Origin: Minisyncoccota bacterium
Lineage (GTDB): Bacteria > Patescibacteriota > Minisyncoccia > Phycocordibacterales > UBA9973
Reading direction: 5' to 3'
Length of the DNA: 53,574 nucleotides
Assembly: GCA_017991915.1 (NCBI GenBank)
Contig: JAGOPQ010000002.1
Coordinates: 1-53,574 of the forward strand
This document shows positions 6,581 through 49,997 of the stretch, one piece after another. Below the pieces are notes generated by a model. That model worked only from the letters and a program-made list of their open reading frames with translations. It searched no databases and was not told the origin of the DNA. The translations under genes and the position numbers were made by a program. Numbering within the stretch: the first letter of the stretch is position 1; every line of letters starts with the position of its first letter.

Positions 6581-6620
6581 GAAAGCCATCCGAAGAGCGG
6601 ATAGCTCCCCAGATGGCTTC
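6581..6620 (-). terminator. Hairpin terminator of GC-island gene 1
   Basis: The minus strand reads GAAGCCATC..(loop containing ATCCG-CTCTT-CGGAT)..GATGGCTTT, then tctcagtttta. The hairpin starts at the stop codon. Confidence 0.5.
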
Positions 6621-7038
6621 AGATTTTATTCGTGGTTCCCGTACTTCGGAACCGATCGATGTCTCCCCGCACTTCCGGGATGAGGGTGGTGACCCCTTCC
6701 GTCAGGGCTGGTAGAGCAAGCCGCACCCTCAATGCAAGCTCCAAGCCTTGAATTCTCGAAGATTTCGTCATGCTGGTAACGCAGACTACGTTGGATTCGA
6801 TGGTGCACCAGACCTGTGTGTTGGAGCGATTTTCCACCCACCACGACAGGTTCTCAAACTCCGCCAGCTTCATGCGTCTGCCGTCCCAATCGATACTGTC
6901 GGGCCCCTTCCAGCCGAGATGCCGACCAGAAGCCTTGATGAGGAAACGAATGTACTTAACAATTTGTCTTTGGATCTCGTCCATCGTGTCCGACATCCCC
7001 AACACTTCGTCCACCATCACAACATAGTCCGGGTCCAC
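6619..7038 (-). CDS. Orphan 139-aa protein on GC-rich island 1 (GTG start, strong SD), family not recognised
   Basis: AGGAGG lies 5 nt upstream of the GTG at 7038. Third codon positions are mostly G/C in this frame (19 of the first 26). Composition differs sharply from the flanks. Confidence 0.6.
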   Translation of the reverse strand: MDPDYVVMVDEVLGMSDTMDEIQRQIVKYIRFLIKASGRHLGWKGPDSIDWDGRRMKLAEFENLSWWVENRSNTQVWCTIESNVVCVTSMTKSSRIQGLELALRVRLALPALTEGVTTLIPEVRGDIDRFRSTGTTNKI

Positions 7039-7056
7039 GGCTCCCTCCTGAGGGAT

Positions 7057-7091
7057 AGCCCACTAGGGCTTGGTTGTGAGCCACTAGGCTC
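7057..7091 (-). promoter_or_regulatory. Two tandem 5-bp GC stems with identical TAGT loops in the 5' leader of island gene 1
   Basis: The mRNA sense reads GAGCC-TAGT-GGCTC (7091-7078) and AGCCC-TAGT-GGGCT (7070-7057). Their centres are about 21 nt apart, between the predicted TSS and the SD. Confidence 0.5.
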
Positions 7092-7109
7092 GTGAGGTAC
7101 CTCGAAAAC

Positions 7110-7138
7110 ATTATGTCACAAATAAACCAACTAATCAA
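7110..7138 (-). promoter_or_regulatory. Sigma70-type promoter TTGATT-17-CATAAT with TG extension, driving island gene 1
   Basis: The minus strand reads TTGATTagttggtttatttgTGaCATAAT. The predicted leader is about 65 nt. Confidence 0.55.
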
Positions 7139-7174
7139 TAGTCATAAAAAGTACTTTGTTATGCTTTGGATTTT

Positions 7175-7183
7175 TGCTACAAT
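7175..7183 (+). promoter_or_regulatory. Extended -10 box (TGcTACAAT) 6 nt upstream of the transporter ATG (leaderless)
   Basis: The sequence reads tttTGcTACAATattcatATG. Confidence 0.5.
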
Positions 7184-7189
7184 ATTCAT

Positions 7190-8221
7190 ATGCAAACGAA
7201 AATCATTGAGCGTTATTTTTTCTTTTGGCTTTTATTGGCCACCCTTTTATTCACCTTCTTCATTTTTCGTCCATTCTTGATCATATTGATTTTGGGAGTG
7301 TCTTTTGCCATTGTTTTGTTTCCTATCAAAGAATGGCTTGATAGTAAAAGAATCCCCCCTTCCATATCTTCTATTTTAACTGTCATTTTCTTTATTTTGG
7401 TGTTCTGTGGTCCCCTCCTCGGCATAGGACTTTTGGTTTTTAATCAATCTCAAAACTTTTATCATGTGGTGGTAGACGGAGGCAACTCTGGACAATTCCT
7501 ATCTGGAATAAATAATTCTGTAAATAGAATTTTACCCGAAGGAATGACTTTTGATGCTCAACAAAAAGCTCTAGATTTCGTTTCTCTGGTTTCAAATAAC
7601 CTCACCACCATATTTAGCACTACCCTAGCTACGGTATTTTCTTTCTTGCTGACCTTGCTTACTATTTTCTATTTCTTGAAAGACGGAGCACAATGGCGCA
7701 AAGCCCTAGTCATCCTCTCTCCTTTGGCGGATGTGAATGATGAGAAAATAATTTCTAGACTTTCTATTGCAGTAAACGGCGTCATCAAGGGCTACCTACT
7801 AGTGGCCATCGCCCAAGGTTTGTTGATGGGCGTCGGACTTTCAATTTTCGGTGTTCCTTCTCCTGCGCTTTGGGGTGTGGTAGCTGCGGTAACTTCATTG
7901 ATCCCTACGATAGGCACAGCTCTGGTTTCCATACCAGCGATTCTTTTCCTTTTTGCCACAGGACAAAATTCTTCCGCGATTGGATTGATAGTATGGGCGA
8001 CATTTTTGGTGGGCATGATAGACAACTTCCTAAGTCCGCTATTTATCAGTAAGAAAGTAGACATACCTTCTCTTTTGATCATGTTCTCTGTGCTTGGTGG
8101 AATTTCTCTCTTTGGTCCAGTTGGAGTTTTGATAGGTCCACTTTCAGTCAGTCTGCTTTACACATTGATTTCGATTTACCGAGATGAGTTTAACAACAAT
8201 CAGTCAAATGCAACTATATAA
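7190..8221 (+). CDS. AI-2E family transporter (PerM-like permease)
   Basis: This is a multi-pass membrane protein with the family's central block (FYFLKDG...L.P......I...........GY......QG...G) and about 8 TM segments. The ATG at 7190 is preferred over the TTG at 7166. Confidence 0.8.
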   Translation: MQTKIIERYFFFWLLLATLLFTFFIFRPFLIILILGVSFAIVLFPIKEWLDSKRIPPSISSILTVIFFILVFCGPLLGIGLLVFNQSQNFYHVVVDGGNSGQFLSGINNSVNRILPEGMTFDAQQKALDFVSLVSNNLTTIFSTTLATVFSFLLTLLTIFYFLKDGAQWRKALVILSPLADVNDEKIISRLSIAVNGVIKGYLLVAIAQGLLMGVGLSIFGVPSPALWGVVAAVTSLIPTIGTALVSIPAILFLFATGQNSSAIGLIVWATFLVGMIDNFLSPLFISKKVDIPSLLIMFSVLGGISLFGPVGVLIGPLSVSLLYTLISIYRDEFNNNQSNATI

Positions 8222-9557
8222 CACGCTCTCTAGGGAAAAAGAAGAATTTGTACCACTCAAAAATAACGAAGTTACTTTTTATTCTTGTGGGCCTACTGTC
8301 TACAACTACCCCCATATAGGCAACTACCGGGCTTATATTTTTGCTGACACACTCAAGCGCGTGCTCAATTATTGCGGGTACAATGTGCACCACATCACCA
8401 ACCTCACTGATGTGGACGACAAGACTATTCGTGATTCTCAAAAAGAAGGAAAAAGTCTAAAAGAATTTACTGAATTTTATACAGCTGAATTTTATGAAGA
8501 TTTAAAATCTTTAAATATTTTGCCTCCAGAAAAATTCACCAAAGCCACTGACAACATCCCCGCCATGGTAGAGCTGATTGAGAAGTTGCTCGAGAAAGGT
8601 CTGGCTTACAAGAGCGAAGACGGCAGTGTGTATTTCAATATCAAGAAATTTAAAAATTACGGACAACTAGCCCATATAGTCCTAGATCAACAAAAAGAAA
8701 ATGCTGGCGGTAGAATCGTCACCGATGAATACGACAAAGACAATGTGCAAGATTTTGCGCTTTGGAAAGCTTGGGATGAAAAAGACGGAGATGTTTTTTG
8801 GGAGACTGGTCTCGGCAAGGGACGCCCAGGTTGGCACATCGAATGTTCAGCTATGAGTATGAAGTTTTTGGGTGAGCAGATAGATATCCATACTGGTGGA
8901 GTGGACTTGATATTTCCCCATCATGAAAATGAAATAGCTCAATCTGAAGGTGCGACTGAAAAACAATTTGTAAAATATTGGATGCACAACGAATGGGTTC
9001 TCGTGGATCAAAAAAAGATGGCCAAGTCTGCGCAAAATTTCTACACCTTGCGTGACCTAATGGAGAAAGGAATCAACCCCCTTGCTTATAGATTTTGGCT
9101 TTTGATGGCGAGCTATCGCACCCGAGTAAACTTCGTCTGGGAAGCCCTAGAAGGCGCAGAAACAGCCCTAAAACGCTTATATAACCTCTACAATGACCTT
9201 GGTGAGGCGGTGGGAACCCCAGTGCTCAAGTATCAAGAAAGCTTCAAGAAGTACGTACAAGATGACCTAGACACTCCACGTGGCTTGTCACTCCTTTGGG
9301 ATGTGCTCAAGGATGAACATATAGATAATGCAGACAAAAAAGCTACTATTTTAGATTTTGATAAAGTACTTGGTTTGGACTTTGTAAATTTAAAAGCTGA
9401 TGTGATTCCAGTAGAAGTTATGGAATTGGTTGCTCTACGTGAGCAAGCCCGAACGGATAAAGATTTTAAATTGTCTGATGAGATACGTGCAAAAATAAAT
9501 GCACTTGGCTATGAAGTCAAAGATACTGCCGATGGACAAAAAATATTAAAGATGTAA
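8208..9557 (+). CDS. cysS: Cysteine--tRNA ligase
   Basis: The protein begins MQLYNTLSREKEEF and has HIGNY, PGWHIECS and KMAKS motifs. The start at the internal ATG matches the canonical CysRS N-terminus. Confidence 0.93.
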   Translation: MQLYNTLSREKEEFVPLKNNEVTFYSCGPTVYNYPHIGNYRAYIFADTLKRVLNYCGYNVHHITNLTDVDDKTIRDSQKEGKSLKEFTEFYTAEFYEDLKSLNILPPEKFTKATDNIPAMVELIEKLLEKGLAYKSEDGSVYFNIKKFKNYGQLAHIVLDQQKENAGGRIVTDEYDKDNVQDFALWKAWDEKDGDVFWETGLGKGRPGWHIECSAMSMKFLGEQIDIHTGGVDLIFPHHENEIAQSEGATEKQFVKYWMHNEWVLVDQKKMAKSAQNFYTLRDLMEKGINPLAYRFWLLMASYRTRVNFVWEALEGAETALKRLYNLYNDLGEAVGTPVLKYQESFKKYVQDDLDTPRGLSLLWDVLKDEHIDNADKKATILDFDKVLGLDFVNLKADVIPVEVMELVALREQARTDKDFKLSDEIRAKINALGYEVKDTADGQKILKM

Positions 9558-9567
9558 TTATTGATAT

Positions 9568-10455
9568 ATGGTAAAAATAGTTATAAATTCAAATATTGAG
9601 AACGCAGATGTAGTTTTTGTGTCAGCTCCGTATGAAAAGACTGCATCAAGCCACAAAGGCACGGCGCATGGCCCGAGTGCTGTGATCGAACAACTTAATC
9701 ATCAGCTAGAATTCTTTGATAGAAAATTTAAGAAAGAAGTTATTGAGTATGTGAAGTCTGGACACTTAGACCTAGGAGATTTAAATGCGCTTACTCCCGT
9801 TGAGAATAATTTTAAAATTCAAAATGCCTGCAACGAATTAATAAAGGATGGTAAGTTCGTCTTTATGCTAGGTGGTGAGCATGCGGTCTCCGTGGGACAC
9901 TTCCAAGCTTTGGCAAAAAAGTACGAACCCAAAGATGTCACTATTTTACATATCGATGCACACTGCGATTTGCGCAATGACGACAGTGATTATAGTGAGA
10001 CCCCTTCTGACCTCGCCCACTCTACAGTCATGCGTCGGGCTAGTGAGCTTGGCTACAACTTGGTGCAGGTAGGTATTCGTACCTATTCAGTGGATGAATA
10101 TAATTATTTCAGTGACAAAAAGCACAATGTGACTGTCTTTGAATGGGGCAACGGTAAAAAAGTCCCAGCGATTTCTAAAATCATAAGTAGCATAAAAACA
10201 AAATATTTATTTATTTCAATAGATGTAGATGGATTCGACCCAGCACATATGCCGGGTACTGGTACTGCGGTTCAAGGCGGATTGGAGTGGTGGTATGGAA
10301 TCTCACTCATCGAACAAGCTATCGCTAAAAAGGAACTAATTGGAGCAGACATCGTAGAAGTTTCCCCTATTGCTGACTCTGTGCTCACCGAATACGGCGC
10401 AGCGCAACTTGCCTACACTATTATTGCGCAGAAATTTGCTGATAGGTTAAAATAA
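9568..10455 (+). CDS. Arginase/agmatinase-family ureohydrolase (probable agmatinase)
   Basis: Mn-binding signature blocks are present: GGEHAVS, HIDAHCDLR, SIDVDGFDP. Confidence 0.8.
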   Translation: MVKIVINSNIENADVVFVSAPYEKTASSHKGTAHGPSAVIEQLNHQLEFFDRKFKKEVIEYVKSGHLDLGDLNALTPVENNFKIQNACNELIKDGKFVFMLGGEHAVSVGHFQALAKKYEPKDVTILHIDAHCDLRNDDSDYSETPSDLAHSTVMRRASELGYNLVQVGIRTYSVDEYNYFSDKKHNVTVFEWGNGKKVPAISKIISSIKTKYLFISIDVDGFDPAHMPGTGTAVQGGLEWWYGISLIEQAIAKKELIGADIVEVSPIADSVLTEYGAAQLAYTIIAQKFADRLK

Positions 10456-11020
10456 TTTTCTTACGATATATAAAAGTAATTAAAGTTAGGTTGAGAAGGA
10501 TAAGATAAACTCCAAAAGAGTAAATCGAAAACCTCCAATCTTTTATAAACATCAATCCAATGCCGTTATTGATAACTCCAGGAATATAACCCAGAGAGGA
10601 TTCTGTTTCTGGGAATTTCCAAGATTTTATTAGTGTCGGAACTGCAGCTAGGGCATCAGATAATATTGCGAATAAAATAGAGATTTCAGTTCTTCTAGTT
10701 GTGATCCAAAAAATCAATGCCAAGGCAGACAAAATTCCACATACAACATCCAAGAGAGAAATTTTCCAGATTACATTGCGTTTGATTAAGGCTGTCACTA
10801 AAACCGGAATGCAAACAAAACCCGCCACAAGCACAGGTATTACAGACAAACCCGCCCCATCTTTTATTTGCAAAAAACCACCTATCACGGGAGCAAGAAA
10901 CCACAAAAACCACGAGACTAAATTGGGTTTGGTGTTTCCACGTATGATATCTCTCACATAAAAAGAAATACCCACAGAGCTGATTAATATTGGCAGGTAC
11001 GCTACTTGTTCCGGAATCAT
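10421..11020 (-). CDS. Polytopic membrane protein, function unknown
   Basis: The protein has about six hydrophobic helices and no recognisable catalytic motif. Its 3' end overlaps the convergent ureohydrolase gene by 35 nt. Confidence 0.55.
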   Translation of the reverse strand: MIPEQVAYLPILISSVGISFYVRDIIRGNTKPNLVSWFLWFLAPVIGGFLQIKDGAGLSVIPVLVAGFVCIPVLVTALIKRNVIWKISLLDVVCGILSALALIFWITTRRTEISILFAILSDALAAVPTLIKSWKFPETESSLGYIPGVINNGIGLMFIKDWRFSIYSFGVYLILLNLTLITFIYRKKIILTYQQISAQ

Positions 11021-11021
11021 A

Positions 11022-12104
11022 TTAGATTCCCTCCTTCTTGAGTTCTTCTATGAGCTCACGAGACTTGCGAGATATTTTAGTTGGAAGTTTTATATTGAGC
11101 TTGATCAAGATGTCTCCACGCTTGCTTCTGTCATGAGGTACACCCTTGCCTTTGACTCGCAAGATTTCATTTACTGTCACACCTTCTGGGATGCTGACTT
11201 CCATCTCACCATCTAGAGTTTCTATTTTGTATTTTGTGCCTAGGAGTGCATCGGAGAGTTTCAGGTTTAGGTTCATGACTAGATCATATCCATCACGTTT
11301 GAATACAGGGTGTGGAGCTACGTTTATTTTTATATACAAGTCTCCGGCAGTTCCTTTGAATACGGCTTCACCCATGCCAGTCATACGGATCATTTCACCG
11401 TCACGGATTCCAGCTGGAATAGCGATAGATATCTCTTCTTCGCGACGTAGCACGCCCTTGCCCTTACATTTATCGCAATGTTCTTTTGGCACTTCACCAG
11501 CACCGTGGCAGTCTTCGCAGACCTTGGTACTAGCGATGTTACCGAGTATGGTTCTCTTGGTTTCTCTGATTTGTCCTTGGCCGTTGCACTTTTTACAAGT
11601 TTCCATCTTGGTTCCGGATTTGGCGCCAGAGCCATGACAGGTCAAACATGAAGATGTTTTGGTAATTAAAATTTTTCTTTGTACTCCAAACACAGCATCA
11701 CTAAAAGATATTTGAATCTCAGTAGAGATGTCTCGGCCACGTCGAGGTTGATTTCCGCCCATACCACCGCCAAAGAAATCACTAAAAATGTCATTCAAAT
11801 TTCCAAAATCAAATTCTGCTCCACCGTTTTGAAATCCACTGAAGTCGAAACCACCAAAGCCTTGTCCGCCTTGGAATCCACCACCACCCATATTTTCAAA
11901 ACCAGCTCCGAACTGGTCGTATTTTGAACGCTTGCCGTCATCAGAAAGGACTTGGTAAGCCTCGTTTACCTCTTTAAATTTACCTTCGTCGCCCTCCTTC
12001 TTATCAGGATGGTATTTGTGCGCCAGCTTGTAAAAAGCCTTCTTTATCTCGTCTTTGGACGCGCCCTTATTTACACCCAGAATGTTGTAATAATCTTTAC
12101 TCAT
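11022..12104 (-). CDS. dnaJ: Molecular chaperone DnaJ
   Basis: The protein has a J-domain (YYNILGV...HPD), a G/F-rich linker and four CxxCxGxG zinc-finger repeats. Confidence 0.95.
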
Positions 12105-12111
12105 AACTACT

Positions 12112-13575
12112 TTATATCATAGGTTCAGCTTCCTGTGAAGATTCGTCTATTTGTGTGCGTGACTTGCCTTCGATGATGGCTTTCTCTTCTGAACTTCGGA
12201 TGATTGTGGCTTCTTCTTCAGCTATCAACTGTGCTGCAGATTCTTTTGGAATAGAATATTTTCTGCGAGAAGCGGCTATGATTTCATCTCTATATGATGG
12301 ATGTGGTGGTGGTAATACTCGCAAAGTTTCTGCAGAGAATGGATCATACGACTCTCCATCTATTGTCATCTTGATATAAAATTCTGTCACCGCGAGGTTT
12401 ATCATATCCTTCACATCAAACAGCGGAGCGAATTCAGGCTTCAATTTTACTGCGTCTTCACCGCCGACACGGAAAGTAATAACTGAACCTACGTTTCCAA
12501 GTACAGCTTGGTGAACCTTGGGTATGATTTGCCCGACGTATTGGTGAGCGATGGTGAGATTTAGCCCGTATTTGCGAGCTTCGGACAATATGTTTTCAAA
12601 AGTTTGAGTGACTACGTTTTGGAACTCGTCCACATAGATGTAGAAATCTTTGCGTTCTTTTTCTGGTATGGCCGCGCGCTCCATGCCGGCTTGTTTGATC
12701 TTGGTCAAGAATATAGAGCCGAGGAAAGAAGAGTTTTCTTCACCAAGGCGACCCTTGGATAGGTTGATGAGGATTATTTTCTCTTCGTTCATCAACTTGC
12801 TGATATCAATTTTGTTTTCTTTCTGTCCGAATATGTTGCGTAGAAGTGGATCAGACAGGAATTGACCGAGTTTGTTTACTAGCGGGATGATTGCGTCAGT
12901 ATCGAATTTTTCAGACCAGTCCGCGAATTCAATGGCGAAGAATCTTTTCACCATGTCATCTTTGATGTACTCCACCACTTTCTGTCTGTAATTTCTATCA
13001 GTCAACATAGAAATCATTCCGCGCATTGTGGCGTGAGGATAGTCTAATAGAGCCAGACAGGTAAATCGAAAAACGTGCTCTAGGCGAGGAGTCCAGTTCG
13101 CTCCGAATTGTTTTTGGAAAACTTCGATGAGTCCTTGGGTCAATTGAAACTTGAACATTGGATCCACGTTGGCTAGTGGATTGAATGAAGCTGGGAAATC
13201 AATATCGGAGGGCTCAATAATACAGACATCCTCAATGCGTTCTTTAGGAACATAGTCCAATATTGCATCCACTACGTCACCGTGTGGGTCTATCAAACAA
13301 AGTCCATGCCCATAGGTGATGTCTTGGCGGATAAAAAGTTCTAGGAGTTTGGTTTTACCCACTCCAGACTTTCCGATGATGTACATGTGGCGACGTCGGT
13401 CTACGCGCTTTACGCCAAAAATAAATTTCTTCTCTTCTAGGGAGGCCACATAGTTTGTACGTCCAATAAAAGAAACCTCTTCGGGTTTTACTTTGCCGAA
13501 AACTGGAAGCTCTGGTGGTGGCGGACCGTATTTAATTATTTGAACTCGATTTGGTTTAGGCATTTGATTTTGCAA
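12112..13575 (-). CDS. P-loop ATPase of the VirD4/TraG/TrwB - HerA(DUF87)-like class (T4SS coupling-protein-like), paralog 1
   Basis: The protein has Walker A ([10 protein letters not shown]), CLIDPHGD and Walker B ([10 protein letters not shown]), then [14 protein letters not shown]. It is strongly similar to the ORF at 15421-17514. Confidence 0.75.
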
Positions 13576-13579
13576 ATCA

Positions 13580-13606
13580 CGTCGCGTAAGTCCTATAGGC
13601 GCGACG
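13580..13606 (-). other. Intercistronic GC hairpin between the Cys-rich gene and ATPase paralog 1
   Basis: The stem is cgtcgcg / cgcgacg (7 bp, 13-nt loop). No U-tract follows on the minus strand, so this is a possible processing or attenuation site. Confidence 0.3.
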
Positions 13607-13629
13607 CTACTCTTATTTTACCATACTAT

Positions 13630-15420: not shown

Positions 15421-17514
15421 TTATTCTAATATTTTTCTTAATACATCTTCGGGTACTTCACGGATTTTCTTTGGTGCGCTTTCAGTAGAAGGAGCCGGTG
15501 TTGGGGTTTCAATTTTTGGTTGCGGAGTTGGTGCTGGTTTGGGTGCAGGTGGAGGAGTTGGGATCGGTGTAGCAATCGGAGCAGTTTTCGCTATCAGATC
15601 CTTTAGCTTGTTCATTTCTTCTGGCGTTGCAGCTCTGTCTTTTGTATTAGCAATCACCTCTTTTGGTTTATCCTTTAGAATATTTATTGATACGGGTGGT
15701 GGTGTAGGCTTGGCCACAGGGGTGACTTCTGCTACCTTGTCTCCACTCATTGTTTTATTTAGGATTTCTTTTAAAGCTGGATTTTCGTTTCTAGATTTGG
15801 GTTTGTCATGTGAAAAAACTTTCTTGATTCCAGAAAGAATTCCATCTTTTCTCTTTGGCTCTGAATTATTATTTTTAGCTGAGTGAGCATTCGCGCGTTC
15901 GGGATGTCTCTCACCAGTTTTTTCTTCTTCAACGTTTTCGGATTTGAATTCTATACCCAAGTCCGCAAGTGGTTTGTAGAATTTTGCATCATCTCTTTTG
16001 CTTGGCTGGTTTAGTTCTTTGCTATTGTTTACTTTTATTTCTCCAGATTTTATTTTTGCTACGCATTCTTTGCAGTATACTGATCGGCCCGGTTCTGGCT
16101 TGAATGGTACTGTCTTCTCTAGTCCACAAGCTGAACATATGATAGGGAACTTCCCTACTTCTCCACCGCTTCCTCCGCCTGATGGTGCGAAATCTCCGAG
16201 TGACATTCCACTCCAATCATTTATTTCTTTCTCCACTGCTTCTCTGGGTTTACAATAAAGCTCACGGGAAGATGCGATAACTCCATCTTCTACAGACTGG
16301 TCATTCTTCTTTGCCATCGGTGGCAGTGTGCGTGCAGAAAACGGACGTGAGGTGACGCCGTCTATCATTAGCTTCAAATATATTTTGTAGTTTGGCAGGT
16401 TCACTATGTCACTCGGGGTGAACTCTGGATCAAATTCTTTTTCCAAGAAATCTGCATCATCAGAACCCACTCGGAAAACTATCATCGTACCCACGTTGCC
16501 GAAGACAGCGTCACGCACAGCAGAGCTCTTGTCAGAGATAAGCTGGGCGGTGTATTGGTGCGCCACAGTCAGGTTTAAGCGGTATTTACGAGCTTCGGAC
16601 AAAATACCGGCAAAGGCGTCGGTGACGAAGTTTTGGAATTCGTCCACGTATAGGTAGAAGTCTTTACGTTCATCTTCAGGGATACGCACGCGCTCCATGG
16701 CCGCGAGCTGGATCTTGGTGATAATCATACCTCCCAAGAGTGCAGAATTGTCCTCACCTATTCTTCCTTTGGACACATTCACTAGGAAAACTTTTCCTTC
16801 GTTCATGATGTCAAAAATATTTATTGTACTTTGTTGTTGGCCGACTACGTTGCGGATGATAGAAGTAGACAAGAATTGACCGACTTTATTTTGAATCGGA
16901 GCGATGGCTTCATTTCTAAATTTTTCTTGCCATGCCTCGTACTCGTGCACCCAAAAAGCCTTGATGACTGGATCTTTCAAGTTGTTTATGATTTTCTGTC
17001 GGTAATCTTTGTCTACTAGCATTCTAGGAATGCCGAGGAGTGTGGTGCCCGGAGTGTCTAGGAGCGCCAGAATACAATTGTTCAAAATGTATTCCATTCT
17101 GGCAGACCAAGCGTTTGCCCAAATCTTGGTGAATATTCCCATGAGTCCAGAGGCTACGAGGTGTTTGTATTTTGGATCAATCAATTCTAGAACGTTGAAG
17201 CCGATGTGGTAGTCCGTATCTGCTGGGTTGAAATATATGACATCCTTCACGCGATGAAGTGGAATAGCGGAGAGAACTTCTTCTACGAGCTCGCCGTGTG
17301 GATCTACCACGCAGACACCCTCACCATTTCGGATGTTCTGGATGATCATGTTGAACATGAGCACAGATTTACCTGTTCCAGATTTTCCGAGGATGTAGAC
17401 ATGCTGACGGCGGTCTTTGCGCTTGATACCAAAAAGAGTGTTCTTGTCTCTAAAAGTAGAGAGCCCAAGATACGTGATATCTCTGTTCATTGGTATTTCG
17501 GGAACGTCAGCCAT
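15421..17514 (-). CDS. VirD4/TraG/HerA-like P-loop ATPase, paralog 2, with a C-terminal zinc ribbon and Pro-rich tail
   Basis: The protein has Walker A (ILGKSGTGKS), CVVDPHGE and Walker B (FYLYVDEFQN). About 250 extra residues follow, containing CSACGLEKTVPFKPEPGRSVYCKEC and PIATPIPTPPPAPKPAPTPQPKIETPTPAP. Confidence 0.75.
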   Translation of the reverse strand: MADVPEIPMNRDITYLGLSTFRDKNTLFGIKRKDRRQHVYILGKSGTGKSVLMFNMIIQNIRNGEGVCVVDPHGELVEEVLSAIPLHRVKDVIYFNPADTDYHIGFNVLELIDPKYKHLVASGLMGIFTKIWANAWSARMEYILNNCILALLDTPGTTLLGIPRMLVDKDYRQKIINNLKDPVIKAFWVHEYEAWQEKFRNEAIAPIQNKVGQFLSTSIIRNVVGQQQSTINIFDIMNEGKVFLVNVSKGRIGEDNSALLGGMIITKIQLAAMERVRIPEDERKDFYLYVDEFQNFVTDAFAGILSEARKYRLNLTVAHQYTAQLISDKSSAVRDAVFGNVGTMIVFRVGSDDADFLEKEFDPEFTPSDIVNLPNYKIYLKLMIDGVTSRPFSARTLPPMAKKNDQSVEDGVIASSRELYCKPREAVEKEINDWSGMSLGDFAPSGGGSGGEVGKFPIICSACGLEKTVPFKPEPGRSVYCKECVAKIKSGEIKVNNSKELNQPSKRDDAKFYKPLADLGIEFKSENVEEEKTGERHPERANAHSAKNNNSEPKRKDGILSGIKKVFSHDKPKSRNENPALKEILNKTMSGDKVAEVTPVAKPTPPPVSINILKDKPKEVIANTKDRAATPEEMNKLKDLIAKTAPIATPIPTPPPAPKPAPTPQPKIETPTPAPSTESAPKKIREVPEDVLRKILE

Positions 17515-17565
17515 ATAAAGAGTATTTTACAATAAAATTAAGTTTTATGCCATACAAAAACTATA

Positions 17566-17592
17566 AACCGCCTGAAGAATACATTGGCGGAT
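17566..17592 (-). terminator. Candidate terminator of GC-island gene 2
   Basis: The minus strand has a CCGCC..13 nt..GGCGG stem followed by tttatagttttt. Confidence 0.4.
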
Positions 17593-17628
17593 TCTTTCAA
17601 GCGGTTGATGACGCGGATATTCTTTTTT

Positions 17629-17668
17629 CGCACGAACGGAGTCCGGCAACTTTAACCCCGTTCGTATG
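17629..17668 (-). other. Strong hairpin in the 3' UTR of island gene 2
   Basis: The stem is gcaCGAACGG / CCGTTCGtatgc (8 bp plus 2 bp) with an 18-nt loop, starting 12 nt after the stop codon. Confidence 0.4.
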
Positions 17669-17679
17669 CAGTCACTGCG

Positions 17680-17973
17680 CTAGACCATGGGTCGGAGTAG
17701 TGACCAGTGGATCTTGCGGATCTCTCCTTCCCACCCGTGTGGTTCGAGGCCGTCCTCCTTGTTCCACGGTCTGCGGAGTGGTTCGCCGTTGTGCAGGAGG
17801 GTGACAGCAAAATCTCCCCCCGTAAATGCCTCCTTCGAGAGTACAACAAAGTACCCCCTGCCGTAGGTGTCTACGAGATCTTGGTGAATCCCCTTGAGGT
17901 TCCATGGAACAAGCTCAGCGGGGACGAAAGTCACGGGCATCCATTCTTCTGGGTCGAGCTTTCGTTGCGACAT
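17680..17973 (-). CDS. Orphan 98-aa protein on GC-rich island 2, family not recognised
   Basis: The ATG at 17973 is preceded by AGGGAGA, 6 nt upstream. The protein MSQRKLDPEEWMPVTFVPAELVPWNLKG... is Trp-rich and not low-complexity. G/C dominates third codon positions. Confidence 0.55.
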   Translation of the reverse strand: MSQRKLDPEEWMPVTFVPAELVPWNLKGIHQDLVDTYGRGYFVVLSKEAFTGGDFAVTLLHNGEPLRRPWNKEDGLEPHGWEGEIRKIHWSLLRPMV

Positions 17974-18017
17974 CGCGAATCTCCCTGGAGGTGGTGGAAC
18001 TATGTGGCTCTGTTTGT

Positions 18018-18045
18018 ACTTTACAACATTATTTTTAATAAGCAA
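18018..18045 (-). promoter_or_regulatory. Candidate promoter TTGCTT-16-TAAAGT for island gene 2
   Basis: The minus strand reads TTGCTTattaaaaataatgttgTAAAGT. The predicted leader is about 38 nt. Confidence 0.35.
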
Positions 18046-18153
18046 GAAAAGACCAAATACTTATTCTAGTTAAACTATTTACAATTCACAAATCACATAT
18101 TAAAATAATAATATTACAAGTCGAATATTATAAATTAATATTTAACACTAAAT

Positions 18154-43559: not shown

Positions 43560-43562
43560 AGC

Positions 43563-44708: not shown

Positions 44709-44714
44709 AAAAAT

Positions 44715-44720
44715 AGTATA
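44715..44720 (-). promoter_or_regulatory. -10 box TATACT 6 nt upstream of the desulfurase ATG (leaderless)
   Basis: The minus strand reads caatataTATACTatttttATG. Confidence 0.4.
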
Positions 44721-44732
44721 TATTGAAAGCGT

Positions 44733-45191: not shown

Positions 45192-45207
45192 TTTGGAAGT
45201 AAAAGTT

Positions 45208-46722
45208 ATGCATAAAGAAAAAACTGAAAAATTAAAAATAGAACGCCCACCCGTCGTGGTAGTCATGGGTCACATTGACCATGGTAAATCTACACTCCTA
45301 GACTATATCAGGAAGACAAATGTGGTGGAGGGTGAAGCAGGTAGTATTACCCAGCATATTTCGGCATATGAAGTTGTACATAAAGATGAAAAAGGAGTAG
45401 AGAAAAAAATTACCTTCCTGGATACTCCAGGACACGAAGCATTTTCCAAAATGCGAGAACGTGGTGCCAACATCGCCGACATCGCCATCTTGGTAGTTTC
45501 GGCTGAAGACGGCGTAAAACCACAAACAATTGAAGCTTACAAAACCATCCTGGCCAGCGAACTGCCATATCTAGTGGCTATAAACAAGATAGATAAGCCA
45601 GGCGCAAACATAGAAAACACCAAAGCAGGGCTAGCCGAGAACGAAATATATTTGGAAAATTATGGGGGCAAAATTCCCTTCGCTGAAATTTCAGCCAAGA
45701 CTGGTGCCGGCATAGATGACCTCTTATCCTTGATTTTGATTTTAGCTGAACTTGAAGACTTCAAGGGATCACCTGATGAATGCGCGTCTGGATTGGTGAT
45801 TGAATCTCACTTGGACTCCAAGCGCGGAATCCAAGCCACCCTCGTAATCAAAAACGGCACCTTGAAGAAAGGAATGACCGTGGCGGTAGATGGCGCACTA
45901 TGTTCTACTCGAATCATAGAAAACTTCAAGGGTGAGATGATCGCTGAAGCTACATTCTCCTCCCCTGTCCGACTTGTGGGATTTGATAAGACTCCGACCA
46001 TTGGCGCAGAATTCAAATCTTTTGAGAAAAAGCGAGATGCTGAAGACTACGCAAAAAATTGGCAATTAAATAAAAATCAAAACAAAGACCTCTCTGCCAA
46101 GGTGGCCGAAACAGATAAAAAAATAATTCCTATTATCTTGAAGGCAGATGTTTGGGGATCTATCGAAGCTATTGAGAAAGAAATCGGTAAGATAAAAAGC
46201 GAGAGCGCGGAATTTAGAATCGTCCAAAAAGGCGTGGGTCCTATTTCTGAATCTGATATAAAAAATGTCTCCGATGGTGAGAGTGCGTTGATTGTGGGCT
46301 TCAATGTGAAGGCCGACAAGAGCGCTACGGAGCTCGCTGATCGTAACTCTGTATCTATAGCTTTCTTTGACATCATCTATAAGATGACTGAATGGCTAGC
46401 CGAAGAGATGGAAAAGCGCCGACCAAAAATCGAAACCATAGAGACTACTGGCCGGGCAAAAATAATCAAAACTTTTAGCCGTACCAAGGAACGTCAGATC
46501 ATTGGTGGAAAAGTAGCTGAAGGAACTATCAACCTCCAAGGCGTGGTCAAGATTGTCCGTAGAGATTTTGAAATCGGACGAGCAAAGATCGTAAATCTAG
46601 AAAAAGGCAAAGTAAAAACTAGCTCTGTCATGGAGGGCGATGAATTTGGCATGATGGTTGAATCCAAAATCGAAGTAGCCCCTGGTGATATGATTGAAGC
46701 CTTTGCTGTAACTCAAAAATAA
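45208..46722 (+). CDS. infB: Translation initiation factor IF-2 (short form)
   Basis: The protein has [28 protein letters not shown] and NKIDK, plus the IF-2 C-terminal domains. The ATG at 45208 is preferred over the TTG at 45193. Confidence 0.93.
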
Positions 46723-46724
46723 TA

Positions 46725-47048
46725 ATGTCTCAACGCACTGACAAAGTATCTAGTCTGGTCAAAGAGCTCGCCGCTCAATTTTTGGGACGCGAAAACAACG
46801 GCACCTCATTGATCACAGTGACTTCTGCTGACGTCTCCCCTGACCTAAAACGCGGAACCATATATATGACTGTGCTTCCACTTGATAAAGAGAAGACGGC
46901 TTTAGAGTTTGCGAAACGAAAAAAGGGCGACCTGCGGGAATTCTTAAAAAAGAATATGAATACCAAGGTGGTGCCTTTTATTGAGATAGAGATAGACCAG
47001 GGAGAAAAGAATCGTCAAAAAATTGACGAACTGCTCCGAGAAAGCTAG
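46725..47048 (+). CDS. rbfA: Ribosome-binding factor A
   Basis: The protein has an RbfA KH-like core (VTVTSADVSPDLKRGTIYM) and occupies the conserved infB-rbfA position. Confidence 0.87.
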   Translation: MSQRTDKVSSLVKELAAQFLGRENNGTSLITVTSADVSPDLKRGTIYMTVLPLDKEKTALEFAKRKKGDLREFLKKNMNTKVVPFIEIEIDQGEKNRQKIDELLRES

Positions 47049-47063
47049 GATTATATATTATTA

Positions 47064-47135
47064 GGCCTGGTAGCCAAGTGGTAAGGCATTCCTCTGCAAA
47101 AGGAATATACGGCGGTTCGATTCCGCCCCAGGCCT
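47064..47135 (+). tRNA. tRNA-Cys (anticodon GCA)
   Basis: The acceptor is GGCCTGG/CCAGGCC, the anticodon stem is TTCCT/AGGAA with loop CTGCAAA, and the T-arm is GGCGG-TTCGATT-CCGCC. The discriminator is U. Confidence 0.9.
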
Positions 47136-47174
47136 CAGGGTTATTTGATAAAATAATAGTGATGAACTATAATT

Positions 47175-47256
47175 GCCCGAGTGGCGGAATTGGTATACGC
47201 GCACGACTTAAAATCGTGTCTCGCAAGGGATGTGGGTTCGACCCCCACCTCGGGCA
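47175..47256 (+). tRNA. tRNA-Leu (anticodon TAA), type II
   Basis: The acceptor is GCCCGAG/CTCGGGC, the anticodon stem is CACGA/TCGTG with loop CTTAAAA, and the variable arm is long. Confidence 0.9.
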
Positions 47257-47287
47257 CTTGTTTGTGAAGTAGAAGAATTGTTTGTTT

Positions 47288-47360
47288 GCGCCCATAACTC
47301 AGCTGGTAGAGTAGCTCCCTCTTAAGGAGAATGTCCCAGGTTCGATCCCTGGTGGGCGCA
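47288..47360 (+). tRNA. tRNA-Lys (anticodon CTT)
   Basis: The acceptor is GCGCCCA/TGGGCGC, the anticodon loop is CTCTTAA, and the T-arm is CCAGG-TTCGATC-CCTGG. Confidence 0.9.
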
Positions 47361-47361
47361 C

Positions 47362-47382
47362 AAAAGTACCGATGTACTTTTT
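47362..47382 (+). terminator. AT-rich hairpin plus T-run directly after tRNA-Lys
   Basis: The sequence reads AAAAGTACcgatGTACTTTTt (8-bp perfect stem). Confidence 0.35.
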
Positions 47383-47421
47383 GCGAGCCGCAGGCACGAC
47401 GGTGCCGAGGCGGGGCCGCGC
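47383..47421 (+). other. Isolated GC-rich imperfect hairpin inside the tRNA cluster
   Basis: The sequence is gcgagccgcaGGCACgacgGTGCCgaggcggggccgcgc, flanked by ttttt and aaaaa. The flanking runs are in the wrong order for a terminator on either strand. Confidence 0.35.
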
Positions 47422-47483
47422 AAAAATTCAACAGAATTTTATGTGTGGCCACAAAGCATGGATGTGTGTTAACGTAGAAATAT

Positions 47484-47565
47484 GGGCAAGTGGCGGAATT
47501 GGTATACGCGTTAGTCTTAGGAACTAATGTCGCAAGACTTGAGGGTTCGAGTCCCTCCTTGCCCA
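47484..47565 (+). tRNA. tRNA-Leu (anticodon TAG), type II
   Basis: The acceptor is GGGCAAG/CTTGCCC, the anticodon stem is TTAGT/ACTAA with loop CTTAGGA, and the variable arm is long. Confidence 0.9.
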
Positions 47566-47579
47566 CATATTTGAGGTAC

Positions 47580-47608
47580 TTGACTTTTGTGTACGAGTAT
47601 GCTATACT
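47580..47608 (+). promoter_or_regulatory. Consensus promoter TTGACT-17-TATACT with TG extension, 8 nt upstream of the ATG
   Basis: The sequence reads TTGACTtttgtgtacgagtaTGcTATACTattagcatATG. Confidence 0.6.
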
Positions 47609-47616
47609 ATTAGCAT

Positions 47617-48372
47617 ATGAGTAAAACAATAACAACAATTAAATACGGCCTAATTTACACCTTAATTTTATTAGCTATTTTGGTCCTAGGCGCTATTACA
47701 TTTATGGCAAGGGAAGCGAATGCTGATGAAACAGCTACTTACCAAGCCTACAATAGCCAGCCTTGGGTTGAGAATGAAGCCCCACTAAAGAACCCTACTC
47801 CGGTAGTTAATTCCCTTAGTCCAAATTCTGCAAACTTGGGATCTGGTTCTAGAAACGTAACTATCACAGGAAGTGGATTCGTAAATGATTCTGTGGCTCG
47901 ATGGAATGGTTCTGATCGTCCAACGACTTTCATAGATAGCTCTCACCTTTTGATTTCTCTACGAGGTACTGACATGACTGGCTCAGCTGGTAAATACATA
48001 ACAGTGTTTAACCCTGAACCAAAAGGAGGATACTCAAATGCATCTTTCTTTACTATTAATGGATACGTAGCTCCAGCAGGAAGCAAGGCTACTACTACAA
48101 AGAGTTCTACTAGTACTTCTGGTGCATCAAGCAAAAGTTCTACTGGTAACAATTCTGGAAGTGTTCTAGGTGCTGATAACTCAAACAATACTTCAACGAA
48201 CGACAGTTTCAACTCTCTGACTTCAAATGCTTTGTTTGGTGCAGGTACTTTCCTACCTTCTGGTATCATCCAATGGTTACTCTTCGCAATATTTATCCTA
48301 CTTGTAGTGATAATTATCAGAAAGATTTTCTTTGCAGATAGATATCATTCTACTCCACTAAAGCACGCTTAA
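47617..48372 (+). CDS. Surface protein: signal/TM, IPT/TIG-like Ig domain, Ser/Thr-rich stalk, C-terminal hydrophobic anchor
   Basis: The IPT-like segment is PVVNSLSPNSANLGSGSRNVTITGSGF....V.WNG......FIDSSHLLISL. An S/T/N-rich linker follows, and the C-terminus is FLPSGIIQWLLFAIFILLVVIIIRK. Confidence 0.6.
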   Translation: MSKTITTIKYGLIYTLILLAILVLGAITFMAREANADETATYQAYNSQPWVENEAPLKNPTPVVNSLSPNSANLGSGSRNVTITGSGFVNDSVARWNGSDRPTTFIDSSHLLISLRGTDMTGSAGKYITVFNPEPKGGYSNASFFTINGYVAPAGSKATTTKSSTSTSGASSKSSTGNNSGSVLGADNSNNTSTNDSFNSLTSNALFGAGTFLPSGIIQWLLFAIFILLVVIIIRKIFFADRYHSTPLKHA

Positions 48373-48403
48373 TACCAAGCAAATCAGCTTGAAATAGAAC
48401 GAC

Positions 48404-48431
48404 AAAAGTCAGCCCGAGAGGGTTGACTTTT
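48404..48431 (+). terminator. Intrinsic terminator after the TIG-domain gene
   Basis: The sequence reads aaaaGTCAGCCCgagaGGGTTGACtttt (12-bp stem, one G.U, GAGA loop). Confidence 0.6.
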
Positions 48432-48451
48432 GCGTTATATTGTGATACAAT
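48423..48451 (+). promoter_or_regulatory. Consensus promoter TTGACT-17-TACAAT with TG extension, driving the GC-rich SPFH cassette
   Basis: The sequence reads TTGACTtttgcgttatattgTGaTACAAT. The -35 box lies inside the 3' arm of the preceding terminator. Confidence 0.6.
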
Positions 48452-48454
48452 ATA
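48436..48454. promoter_or_regulatory. Perfect 8-3-8 palindrome overlapping the -10 box (operator candidate)
   Basis: The sequence reads TATATTGT-gat-ACAATATA. Confidence 0.4.
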
Positions 48455-48488
48455 TAAGTACTTTGGTCTTTGAAAATTGGTTGTAAAT

Positions 48489-48559
48489 GAGCGATTTGTT
48501 CGCCGAGTAGCCCTACCCTGCTTAGGAATCCCTAGAGCTTTTGGGCGAACAAATCGTTC
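48489..48559 (+). promoter_or_regulatory. 16-bp inverted repeat closing a 39-nt loop in the ~170-nt leader of the SPFH cassette
   Basis: The arm gagcgatttgttcgcc (48489-48504) pairs with ggcgaacaaatcgttc (48544-48559), with one G.U. A second hairpin, GCGCC-ccc-GGCGC (48600-48612), abuts the SD. Confidence 0.45.
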
Positions 48560-48627
48560 ACACAATTCACTACACGCGCGCCACAAGGCGACGCACTATG
48601 CGCCCCCGGCGCGGAGGAGATACACAA

Positions 48628-49503
48628 ATGCCTACACAAGACAGCACCTGGGACTTGGTCCTGGGGGGTGTCATTACCCTCATCCTGCTCATCTTCAGCA
48701 TCACTGCATTCCCGTCTGGAACGGGATTTCTCAATGAAGTATTCTATCTCTTGTTGATGTGCATCCCCTGGGGATGGCACTTCACAGGGTGGAAAACCAC
48801 CCAGGTGGGTTTCCGCTCTCAAGCTCTTTTGTTTGGAGCAAGGGTGAACTACTTCATGGGAGAAGGCCTTCACTACACGCCATGGCCAGCAGGACGCAAG
48901 GAAGTGGATTGCAGGGAGCAGGTGTTAAAGCTGGATCCAGTCAAAGCTTTCACAAAGGGCCGAGACGGTACTCCAGATGAAGTTGGACCAGAAGTGGAAG
49001 TGCAAGCAACCGTCACCAGAAGAGTGACGAACCTGCATGAATACTTCGACGTCAACGAGAAGGATATCAAGCAGTGGCTTGATGACACTCGCGACGAGGT
49101 CGTGCGCCACAAGGTTTCAGAGAAAACCCTGAGCCAAGCCCTCACTATGGGCTCTACTCTCGCAGTGGAGCTTCATTCAGCTCTGCAGGGGAAGAGTCAT
49201 TGGGGAATCGAAATCACTGGGGCAGCAATACCAGGTATCGCTCCGACTGACGAGAAGATCATGAAGGACCTCGCACTCAAGGAGGGCGAGGAACTCCAGC
49301 GCACTGGACAGCAGATCGAGGTAAAAAACTTTACCGAGATCATGAAGCAACTCATGGACGCTGGGTGCTCTCGTGAACAAGCCTTTGAACAGGCCCAACT
49401 CACGATCAAGAAGGCCACCAAGACGATTGACTCGAAGAGTCTGGTGGTTGATGCCACAACCGCATCCATCTTCGCAGGAATCCTCGGAGGGAAGAAGCCA
49501 TGA
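48628..49503 (+). CDS. SPFH/Band-7 (stomatin/prohibitin/HflK-like) membrane protein on GC-rich island 3
   Basis: GGAGGAG lies 8 nt upstream of the ATG. The protein has two N-terminal TM helices and SPFH-like blocks (FRSQALLFGARV...EGLHYTPWP...VDCREQVLKL....VEVQATVTRRV, WGIEITGAAIPGIAPTDE). Confidence 0.72.
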   Translation: MPTQDSTWDLVLGGVITLILLIFSITAFPSGTGFLNEVFYLLLMCIPWGWHFTGWKTTQVGFRSQALLFGARVNYFMGEGLHYTPWPAGRKEVDCREQVLKLDPVKAFTKGRDGTPDEVGPEVEVQATVTRRVTNLHEYFDVNEKDIKQWLDDTRDEVVRHKVSEKTLSQALTMGSTLAVELHSALQGKSHWGIEITGAAIPGIAPTDEKIMKDLALKEGEELQRTGQQIEVKNFTEIMKQLMDAGCSREQAFEQAQLTIKKATKTIDSKSLVVDATTASIFAGILGGKKP

Positions 49504-49937
49504 ATAAGGCTAGAAACCCTGCGTGGATTGCGGGGTCAATCGTTGGCATGTTGCTGGTCGTGATGGTTCTGGTCTTCGTCTTCACTCGTGGAAGTTCGAA
49601 TTCAACACGAGACGACAAGCAAGACACCGGCGGTCAGTCGGCGGGAACTGCAGCGGACACCGTGTATATGGCGCCGCGATTTCGGACCATGCGGGTGTTT
49701 GACAGCATTCCGCCCGAAGGCATCCGTCTTTATCTCCGACAGGGGTGGCAAGACTTCCCTCTGGGTGGAGCTATCACGATCCAGATGATCAACGAATCGG
49801 GAAGCCCTGTTGGTCCAATTCTGCATGATGAACCAGGTGTCCAACATGACTTTGGATTCCAACCCGACGGACTTTACATCATCCACGCCGACCCACAAGG
49901 GTCACGTAGGGGGGTAAGACTTTACAACCAATGGTAG
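49500..49937 (+). CDS. 145-aa bitopic protein translationally coupled to the SPFH gene, family not recognised
   Basis: The ATGA start overlaps the SPFH stop, and GGAGGG lies 8 nt upstream. The protein has one TM helix (WIAGSIVGMLLVVMVLVFVF), then a domain of about 100 aa with beta-strand-like patterns. Confidence 0.6.
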   Translation: MNKARNPAWIAGSIVGMLLVVMVLVFVFTRGSSNSTRDDKQDTGGQSAGTAADTVYMAPRFRTMRVFDSIPPEGIRLYLRQGWQDFPLGGAITIQMINESGSPVGPILHDEPGVQHDFGFQPDGLYIIHADPQGSRRGVRLYNQW

Positions 49938-49963
49938 TTAAACGATCTGCGCAATAATGCGCA

Positions 49964-49997
49964 AAGGGGGCGGACTCAACATCGAGTCTGCCCCCTT
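49964..49997 (+). terminator. Strong hairpin terminator closing GC island 3
   Basis: The sequence reads AAGGGGGCGGACTCaacatcGAGTCTGCCCCCTTtcacgtttt (14 bp, one G.U). A small GCGCA-ataa-TGCGC hairpin precedes it. Confidence 0.7.

Follow-up and report, generated by a model that had tools for sequence, protein, structure and literature searches.

We analysed a 53,574-nt stretch of contig JAGOPQ010000002.1 from a Minisyncoccota bacterium (assembly GCA_017991915.1; hereafter the window), in which three short GC-rich islands carry four genes, called G1 to G4 here. Relatives of the DnaJ encoded in the window, at about 80% identity, all come from metagenome-assembled genomes (MAGs) of Candidatus Nomurabacteria or Paceibacteria, which belong to the candidate phyla radiation (CPR). 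GC content is 0.406 in the window as a whole and 0.398 once the islands and the tRNA genes are removed, while the islands reach 0.552 (6581-7100), 0.551 (17566-18010) and 0.535 (48486-49997). Background windows of 450 nt (n=1910) have a standard deviation of 0.032 and a maximum of 0.487, a value that all three islands exceed; their excess over the background amounts to 4-5 standard deviations. An earlier interpretation of the letters alone (the sequence-only reading) had singled out these segments, and its hand counts of G+C (37/60, 32/60 and 20/60) proved exact. The sole further sustained GC peak, at 47064-47566, consists of four tRNA genes (Cys-Leu-Lys-Leu). The island genes have a GC at third codon positions (GC3) of 0.57-0.68, whereas the remaining called open reading frames (ORFs) span 0.23-0.50, a deviation of the kind expected of a horizontally transferred island. 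The overall GC of all four genes is nearly equal (0.53-0.54), and long, overlapping ORFs are open on both strands within the islands, as had been described.

The island genes also differ from their neighbors in how translation appears to start. Each is preceded by a strong Shine-Dalgarno (SD) sequence, namely AGGAGGGA-3-GTG (G1), GGGAGA-6-ATG (G2), GGAGGAG-8-ATG (G3) and GGAGGG-7-ATG (G4), with duplex energies against the anti-SD of -8 to -10.8 kcal/mol. All four thus carry an SD, compared with two of the 49 host genes (Fisher p = 5e-5). Conversely, a -10-like hexamer ends 4-10 nt 5' of the ATG in 33 of the 49 host genes, whereas a control window 30-36 nt upstream contains one in 6/49, and the host genes are largely leaderless, as the sequence-only reading proposed. 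Its companion claim, that host starts lack SDs, holds for 47 of 49 and fails for p199 (10421-11020) and, weakly, recR, as well as for AT-rich copies of the island-3 operon in relatives. The stretch before p199, AAGGAGGG (minus strand, 11005-11021), is the only strong SD-like sequence upstream of a gene of native composition. It says little about SD use because it sits within the last dnaJ codons, which encode a conserved C-terminal KKEG, and because relatives have it in weaker form or lack it. Strictly SD-less is nevertheless too strong a description of the genome, as the lineage places SDs on the conserved SPFH operon of island 3 even in AT-rich relatives.

Island 3 contains G3 and G4. G3 (48628-49503, plus strand; 291 aa, GC3 0.61) is an SPFH/Band-7 membrane protein that matches Pfam family PF01145 with 31.3 bits against a curated cut-off of 23.6, which bears out the earlier assignment. 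G4 (49500-49937, plus strand; 145 aa) is predicted to be a single-pass membrane protein with a beta-rich C-terminal domain, and its start, preceded by the SD GGAGGG, overlaps the G3 stop (ATGA). Across 80 infB-anchored metagenome loci the gene order is infB, rbfA, the tRNA cluster, an IPT/TIG protein gene, a variable slot and pilin genes. In the approximately 20 loci of sufficient length, the slot is filled by an overlapping pair of genes of about 300 and 150 aa. Clustering with phmmer and hidden Markov models (HMMs) linked G4 to 19-21 positional homologues and G3 to 12, plus 5 in a second cluster, and 12/19 positional counterparts of G3 match Band_7 in Pfam (best E = 8e-17). The closest relatives of G3 are P0003, at 40% identity, and its counterpart in locus L139, at 32-33%. 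A metagenome scan with the G3 and P0003 alignment and a search of PDB sequences with G3 found nothing, and Pfam assigned neither NfeD nor any other family to G4 and 16 members of its family.

The comparison with relatives bears directly on the age of this operon. GC3 of the pair is 0.14-0.34 in genomes of at most 0.35 GC (0.41 in one genome at 0.37) and 0.54-0.71 in most genomes of 0.36 or more. AT-rich orthologues of both genes thus occupy the same locus in sister genomes, which contradicts the proposal that island 3 was acquired recently and is an outcome that the sequence-only reading had itself listed as a refutation. GGAGG-type SDs precede most G3-family genes and strong SDs precede 16/17 G4-family genes, AT-rich copies included. 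Because AT-rich orthologues carry them too, the SDs are a trait of the operon in this lineage and not, as the sequence-only reading had taken them, the mark of a donor. The operon proteins are less than 35% identical, compared with 55-80% for flanking proteins, despite a conserved promoter and leader. Within the G4 family the N-terminal membrane anchor is kept, and there are at least three C-terminal subtypes that barely align. Each subtype (window 49500-49937, counterparts in L084-L159) is found in both AT-rich and GC-rich form; the subtypes are scattered on the infB tree, and sister genomes can carry different ones.

The operon promoter is nested in the terminator of the preceding gene. The 3' arm of the predicted IPT/TIG gene terminator (48403-48451, plus strand) provides the -35 element TTGACT, which is followed by an extended -10, TG-TACAAT. 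The hairpin reads AAAAGTCAGCCC-n4-GGGTTGACTTTTG (within 48403-48487), and a box, TAAGTACTTTG...CTTTGAAAA, lies 3' of the -10; the box and the terminator-nested -35 are kept in relatives whatever their GC. Of 18 relatives inspected, most share a layout of -35 within the terminator, extended -10, YTTTGAAAA box and long hairpin, and the nested terminator-promoter stands at the same place in L084, L092, L096, L101, L117, L123, L136, L158 and L159.

The leader that follows is about 170 nt long and contains the long hairpin (48489-48559, plus strand), a covarying stem with an apical GAGU(A/G)GC. In an alignment of 11 sequences, including that of the window, 17 pairs are predicted, 94% of the cells are paired and compensatory double changes occur at 12 of the 17 pairs; none of 500 shuffles was as good, and slid controls scored far lower. 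A covariance model built from the alignment (R1) has one real match in the window (58.9 bits, E = 1e-10), in relatives matches this slot alone, also where the relative was not part of the seed alignment, and has no matches in 1.27 Mb of control loci. Although non-coding, the hairpin is GC-enriched through compensatory changes. Its G-U pairs and higher plus-strand scores argue for structure at the RNA level. At gathering score Rfam identified only tRNAs in the whole window, and permissive searches of Rfam 15 with each island and with the leader hairpin gave only chance-level matches (E >= 4). The hairpin is a candidate new RNA element, lying upstream of a conserved operon and near a type IV secretion system (T4SS) pilin array. 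Two short GC hairpins follow (48576-48619, plus strand; fold z = -2.25), and the outer pairs of the second, GCGCC-CCC-GGCGC, reach into the SD GGAGGAG (48613-48619). A GGCGC-AAGGAG-like hairpin abutting the SD is also present in other GC-rich alleles.

At the far end of the operon, an inverted repeat forms a predicted terminator hairpin with a 15-bp GC-rich stem (49963-49998, plus strand; z = -7.3). We also noted a perfect 12-nt inverted repeat (48476-48487 and 49921-49932), which we take to be a coincidence because we estimate a chance expectation of about 10% and because its 3' copy encodes a conserved C-terminal YNQW. Directly downstream lie four consecutive minus-strand genes (50036-52753; 111, 130, 278 and 202 aa) that match the T4SS pilin family PF18895, the 202-aa protein just under the curated cut-off, and that constitute a VirB2-like array.

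Island 1 is an inserted cassette of about 602 nt (6569-7170, minus strand) between the divergent promoters of rplU and an AI-2E permease gene. The site was sampled in 23 relatives, and the island is an insertion relative to 16 of them, in which the permease-rplU gap is 40-116 nt and reads gcaag-tttttgctataat (gcaag-TTTTTGCTATAAT). Three further sites contain an AT-rich gene of about 600 aa (L007 15028-16854, L011 16352-18133, L019 16738-18516), one has a different GC-rich gene, a PNP/UDP-family nucleoside phosphorylase (L004 6667-7455), and one has a 163-nt gap. Two independent assemblies, L161 and L162, carry the G1 cassette at the identical site; among the relatives found, the closest thus has the island and more distant ones lack it. 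The sequence-only reading had noted that no integrase, transposase or terminal repeats accompany the islands. Indeed, neither an integrase nor a transposase lies near them and no integrase occurs in the window, but a possible 6-bp duplication brackets island 1, with TTTTTG at both 6563-6568 and 7171-7176; in relatives both the empty site and the duplicated TTTTTG can be made out.

A consensus scan places the G1 promoter-like site, TTGATT-17-TG-CATAAT, at 7110-7138 on the minus strand, inside the inserted piece, and it is kept in L161 as TTGATT-N-TGTGATATAAT. The putative 5' leader of about 65 nt (7039-7103, minus strand; fold energy -26.4 kcal/mol, z = -1.75) comprises two tandem UAGU-loop hairpins and a third, SD-proximal hairpin, UCCCU-CAGG-AGGGA, that half-sequesters the SD AGGAGGGA (7042-7049). 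G1 itself (6619-7038, minus strand) has a GTG start, a GC3 of 0.68 and a 139-aa product to which no function is assigned. The cassette closes with a terminator hairpin of 17 pairs and a U-rich tail (6582-6620, minus strand), found by a scan (z = -6.49). Between the window and L161, the terminator is approximately 96% and the 62-nt leader approximately 97% identical, while for the coding sequence of G1 the figures are 61% at the nucleotide and 53% at the amino acid level.

The one homologue of G1, P0005, was found by a full HMMER search (53% identity, E = 1.6e-37), and its gene has a GC of 0.53 and a GC3 of 0.65 against a background of 0.40. G1 matches no Pfam, PHROG or PADLOC family and no cultured-phage or plasmid record. 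AlphaFold2 applied to G1 with its homologue gave a predicted local distance difference test score (pLDDT) of 51.5, too low for a fold search. Residues 63-95 of G1 (6754-6852, LSWWVENRSNTQVWCTIESNVVCVTS) weakly resemble the 8-fold repeat YQWYK...GDSVWC.VTSN..C of the 1251-aa metagenome protein P0006, a match that looks like motif-level similarity only and that we set aside.

Synonymous divergence (dS) between the window and the L161-type relative is 1.43 for G1, compared with 1.77 for cysS and 1.93 for the permease gene, and the ratio of nonsynonymous to synonymous divergence (dN/dS) is 0.29 compared with 0.04-0.09 for host genes. These values are consistent with a cassette that diverged vertically along with the host, its protein evolving fast and its untranslated regions (UTRs) under strong constraint. 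The cassette was already in place before a split at which four-fold degenerate sites of the host are near randomised, so that the claim that island 1 is recent finds no support.

Island 2 carries G2. This gene (17680-17973, minus strand; 97 aa, ATG start, GC3 about 0.65) is recognizable as a gene by strong 3-base periodicity, with GC of 0.64/0.39/0.65 at the three codon positions. We found no homologue in 5.8 billion protein clusters, in the loci of 160 relatives, or in phage, plasmid and viral collections. The word-indexed protein search also missed the 53% homologue of G1 that full HMMER later found, so that "orphan" here means that G2 has no close relative, not that it has no relative at all. 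Its AlphaFold2 model (pLDDT 42) was likewise too low for a fold search. The promoter region and leader span 17974-18091 on the minus strand, where a scan matches TTGTGA-17-TAGAAT (18091-18063) and direct reading suggests a nearer candidate, TTGCTT-16-TAAAGT (18045-18018). The leader would accordingly be 38-80 nt long; it contains the SD GGGAGA (17980-17985), and we found no significant structure in it (z = +0.95). The 3' UTR (17563-17667, minus strand) has two hairpins, the second followed by UAUAGUUUUUG and likely to be the terminator, which a simple terminator scan missed because the hairpin loop is long. The 131 nt from 17555 to 17685 fold with -41 kcal/mol (z = -3.05), and the 3' UTR lies just upstream of the promoter of a leaderless T4SS coupling-protein gene.

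The slot upstream of this coupling-protein gene is variable in relatives. In L017 it has a promoter, a 75-nt leader, the SD AAAGGAG, a GC-rich 83-aa ORF and a terminator, and in L010 a GC-rich 84-aa membrane ORF with the SD GAGGAG; both proteins are unrelated to G2. By eye, the same slot contains a HicB/HicA-like toxin-antitoxin pair in one relative and a protein with a TfoX-like N-terminal domain in four (L001 3751-4190; L011 1290-1667; L012 3592-3960; L014 220-564; L030 4622-5011). The window has two T4SS coupling-protein-like ATPases with TrwB/TraG domains on the minus strand, 2 kb apart (12112-13563 and 15421-17514); the longer of them includes a treble-clef zinc finger, and its long proline-rich tail accounts for a local rise in GC at 16441-16760. 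Self-contained GC-rich mini-genes recur across Paceibacteria loci, about half of them with a strong SD, mutually unrelated and mostly without an assigned function. For example, L035 5659-9866, from a Zambryskibacteria MAG of 0.39 GC, has three that encode 63-81 aa within 4 kb, each with a TTGACA-type promoter, a strong SD and a terminator.

The islands therefore have the organization that the sequence-only reading gave them, each with a promoter-like site, a leader (about 65, 38-80 and 170 nt) and a terminal hairpin, and the three products that it could not place in a family, G1, G2 and G4, match no Pfam family. Its suggestion that they are parts of one dispersed function finds no support: G3-G4 is near-universal in the clade, G1 was seen in one sub-lineage and G2 nowhere else, and we found no sequence, repeat or RNA motif shared between the three islands. 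Nor do their relatives point to a distant high-GC donor. All the homologues that we found, at 32-53% identity, are in Nomurabacteria-type contexts or on short metagenome contigs, and the promoter that came with the piece inserted at island 1, TTGATT-17-TGTGACATAAT, is of the type native to the lineage. No PADLOC defence profile matches G1-G4 at E up to 1, PHROGs gave nothing meaningful for the four proteins, and searches of viral contigs with G2, G3 and the G1 alignment turned up no relative.

The GC excess is maintained and is not the decaying, unameliorated signature of a donor, because third positions have reached near-chance identity while GC3 is kept, and because decay would require an impossible ancestor for G1. 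Among GC-rich G3 and G4 alleles, third-position identity is 0.20-0.41 compared with 0.25-0.28 by chance, and GC3 is still 0.52-0.75. In the G1 comparison, 403 host four-fold sites are 0.40 identical compared with 0.27 by chance, which gives e^-2ut = 0.17, and passive decay of G1 toward the host equilibrium would need an ancestral GC3 of at least 1.04. GC3 of G1 is 0.65-0.68 across the window and the near-saturated relative. On the infB tree, the AT-rich operons belong to two host clades of low GC and the GC-rich operons to the other lineages.

Taken together, our results make it probable that a Candidatus Nomurabacteria chromosome carries the islands as resident accessory cassettes, rather than as one system or as fresh cargo from a distant high-GC source. 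Each cassette would form a transcription unit of its own, in which a sigma-70-type promoter and an untranslated leader precede a GC-rich ORF with its SD, and a hairpin terminator ends the unit. It would be an exception in a genome whose genes mostly begin at the mRNA 5' end. A gene with a leader lacks a start codon at the 5' terminus and would therefore need an internal initiation signal, so that SD and leader would be expected to coincide. Island 3 is a conserved operon of an SPFH/Band-7 protein and its membrane partner, placed between an IPT/TIG surface protein and a VirB2-like pilin array; it would be transcribed from the conserved promoter nested in the upstream terminator and probably regulated via the leader hairpin and the GC hairpin abutting the SD. 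Island 1 would be an older, lineage-specific insertion that brought its own promoter and combines constrained UTRs with a fast-evolving protein, its third leader hairpin probably gating the SD. Island 2 is an orphan in the variable slot upstream of the T4SS coupling-protein gene. It may be that the leaders regulate translation and that the cassettes are linked to the adjacent T4SS and pilin genes.

Several points weigh against this interpretation. Calling the islands resident does not by itself explain their composition. Island 2 alone could be a recent import, since G2 has no relative anywhere we searched. Sites 1-2 and site 3 were compared on different sets of relatives' contigs, so that frequencies rather than whole genomes had to serve for judging whether the islands co-occur. 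For G1, the amelioration estimate uses 32 four-fold sites and a simple F81 model, and the TTTTTG duplication beside island 1 is T-rich and could be due to chance. The promoters, leaders and their regulation are read from sequence. Finally, the anti-SD motif could be detected in no more than 48% of Parcubacteria (PMC9297842), and none of the loci analysed includes a 16S rRNA 3' end.

We consider it unlikely, though it is the strongest of the competing explanations, that the cassettes are exchanged, with their coding parts repeatedly replaced, by homologous recombination at conserved flanks, from a reservoir of higher GC. Other Paceibacteria could serve as donors, as could a mobile element or phage of about 55% GC that has yet to be sampled, and such traffic would keep the islands GC-rich and hypervariable and their UTRs homogenised. 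Exchange would fit the ultraconserved UTRs around the divergent coding sequence of G1, the conserved promoter and leader of an SPFH operon whose proteins fall below 35% identity between flanks at 55-80%, and the G4 C-terminal subtypes that are scattered against the infB tree and differ between sister genomes. It would also fit the sharp GC boundaries at transcription-unit edges and the proximity of the cassettes to T4SS, competence-type and pilin genes. However, 9/9 operons are AT-rich in the two low-GC host clades and 9/9 are GC-rich in mid-GC lineages, so composition follows the host and not the allele type. In addition, dS of G1 matches that of host genes, as vertical descent predicts, and the reservoir element was not found in viral, phage or plasmid collections.

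Somewhat more doubtful is local maintenance, in which selection on leadered transcripts, acting on mRNA structure or stability or through rare-codon throttling, or else GC-biased gene conversion at loci prone to recombination, holds a GC-rich equilibrium in the mid-GC Nomurabacteria clades. The very distribution that speaks against exchange suits this explanation: the GC state maps to host clades and rises with genome GC, operon GC3 being near background at genome GC of 0.37 or less (with the exception of L139, at 0.36) and otherwise 0.2-0.3 above it. The GC enrichment of the leader hairpin and the persistence of composition at randomised third positions are also consistent with it. Nonetheless, a GC3 shift of 25-30 points is far larger than the effect of biased gene conversion reported in bacteria, and selection on codon composition should be weak in symbionts with small populations.

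The explanation offered by the sequence-only reading, that all three islands are recent, unameliorated acquisitions from a high-GC, SD-using donor or its phage, perhaps serving one dispersed function, now seems improbable. It accounts well for a composition 4-5 standard deviations above background, for SDs on the island genes and few host genes, for the near-identical GC (0.53-0.54) of four genes of which G1 and G2 have no family assignment, and for the absence of island 1 from most relatives. Yet orthologues of G3-G4, AT-rich ones among them and mostly SD-led, lie at the same locus in about 20 relatives; G1 is older than a near-saturated split and its GC3 is still 0.65-0.68; outside Nomurabacteria-type contexts our searches found no homologue; the promoter within the inserted piece is of the lineage's type; and nothing is common to the three islands. 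For islands 1 and 3 this explanation is already contradicted. That the islands are assembly chimeras, contaminant fragments or structured non-coding RNAs mistaken for genes is very improbable: GC-rich patches in AT-rich genomes are often RNAs and these ORFs are open on both strands, but each island stands at an intergenic site with native sequence on either side, two independent assemblies share the island-1 junctions and many assemblies from several studies the island-3 arrangement, the genes show strong codon periodicity, protein homologues and a Pfam match, and Rfam finds nothing in the islands.

If the islands are resident cassettes, as we favor, they share features with several known systems without matching any of them. 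The morons of phages, described by Hendrix and colleagues, are said to be promoter-ORF-terminator units of deviant composition inserted between conserved genes. The islands are similarly intergenic and self-contained, with a promoter, a small ORF and a terminator, deviant composition and mostly unassigned cargo, but they sit in a bacterial chromosome among housekeeping and T4SS genes, have no PHROG or viral-contig match, and two of them at least have persisted for long, with UTRs that are conserved. In the model attributed to Lawrence and Ochman, horizontally acquired islets reportedly ameliorate toward host composition. The islands are compositional outliers of this kind, and island 1 is inserted relative to most relatives with a possible target duplication. 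However, their composition is undecayed across near-saturated divergence, there is neither an integrase nor a donor homologue, and island 3 is syntenic across the clade. Absence from sister genomes, which an island of recent horizontal origin should display, is contradicted by island 3 in about 20 relatives and by island 1 in L161 and L162, island 2 offering no syntenic reference for the comparison, and we found no close homologues in a plausible donor lineage.

The closest parallels for G3-G4 are the SPFH/stomatin-NfeD and flotillin-NfeD2 operons, known pairs of an SPFH protein and a small membrane protein. G3 likewise belongs to SPFH/Band-7, and its translation is coupled to that of a small membrane protein whose soluble domain is predicted to be beta-rich; here the SPFH gene comes first, the partner has no NfeD or other Pfam match, and it occurs in at least three unrelated-looking C-terminal subtypes. 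Capsule and O-antigen loci are variable regions of atypical GC between conserved flanks. CPR genomes also contain variable VirB2-like pilin arrays beside T4SS genes (bioRxiv 10.1101/2025.01.22.634366). The islands resemble both in their conserved flanks, hypervariable interior and atypical composition, and they too lie near host-interaction machinery (four T4SS pilin genes and the coupling-protein genes); they differ in deviating to high GC and in comprising one or two small genes, and recombinational exchange would be an inference from their pattern. T4SS components are reportedly essential for epibiotic growth in the one CPR bacterium tested. Like integron cassettes, the islands are small, often orphan genes with their own SD and deviant composition, but they have their own promoters, no attC-like repeat between them, no integrase and no array.

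The tRNA cluster, 0.9 kb from island 3 with a conserved native gene between, varies in its own right. The Cys-Leu-Lys-Leu cluster is inverted wholly or partly in L081, L083, L087, L098, L100, L108, L109, L146, L149 and others, just after rbfA, and seems to be a rearrangement hot spot. In some relatives AT-rich ORFs of 160-240 aa stand between the tRNA genes (L117 12192-12680; L139 3168-3665; L119 12092-12823 and 13152-13802). Two of them are mutually homologous, and these ORFs may be homing-endonuclease-like.

By the textbook, a gene with high GC and an SD would be taken for a recent transfer, yet at least two of the three islands are old residents that have kept their composition. Annotation of transfer by composition alone may therefore mislabel such genes in CPR genomes. 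More speculatively, and in our view doubtfully, Nomurabacteria and Paceibacteria might keep a distinct class of genes: leadered, SD-dependent, GC-rich, hypervariable cassettes bounded by ultraconserved UTRs and often near T4SS or pilus genes, in which the UTRs would serve as both riboregulators and recombination handles and the coding parts would be swapped with an unsampled GC-rich reservoir. If true, this would be a cassette system without an integrase or attC sites, and it would add a second, regulated initiation regime beside leaderless initiation. The locus is a natural contrast of leaderless and SD-led initiation within one stretch of chromosome, and it bears on the report that an anti-SD is detected in only part of the Parcubacteria (PMC9297842).

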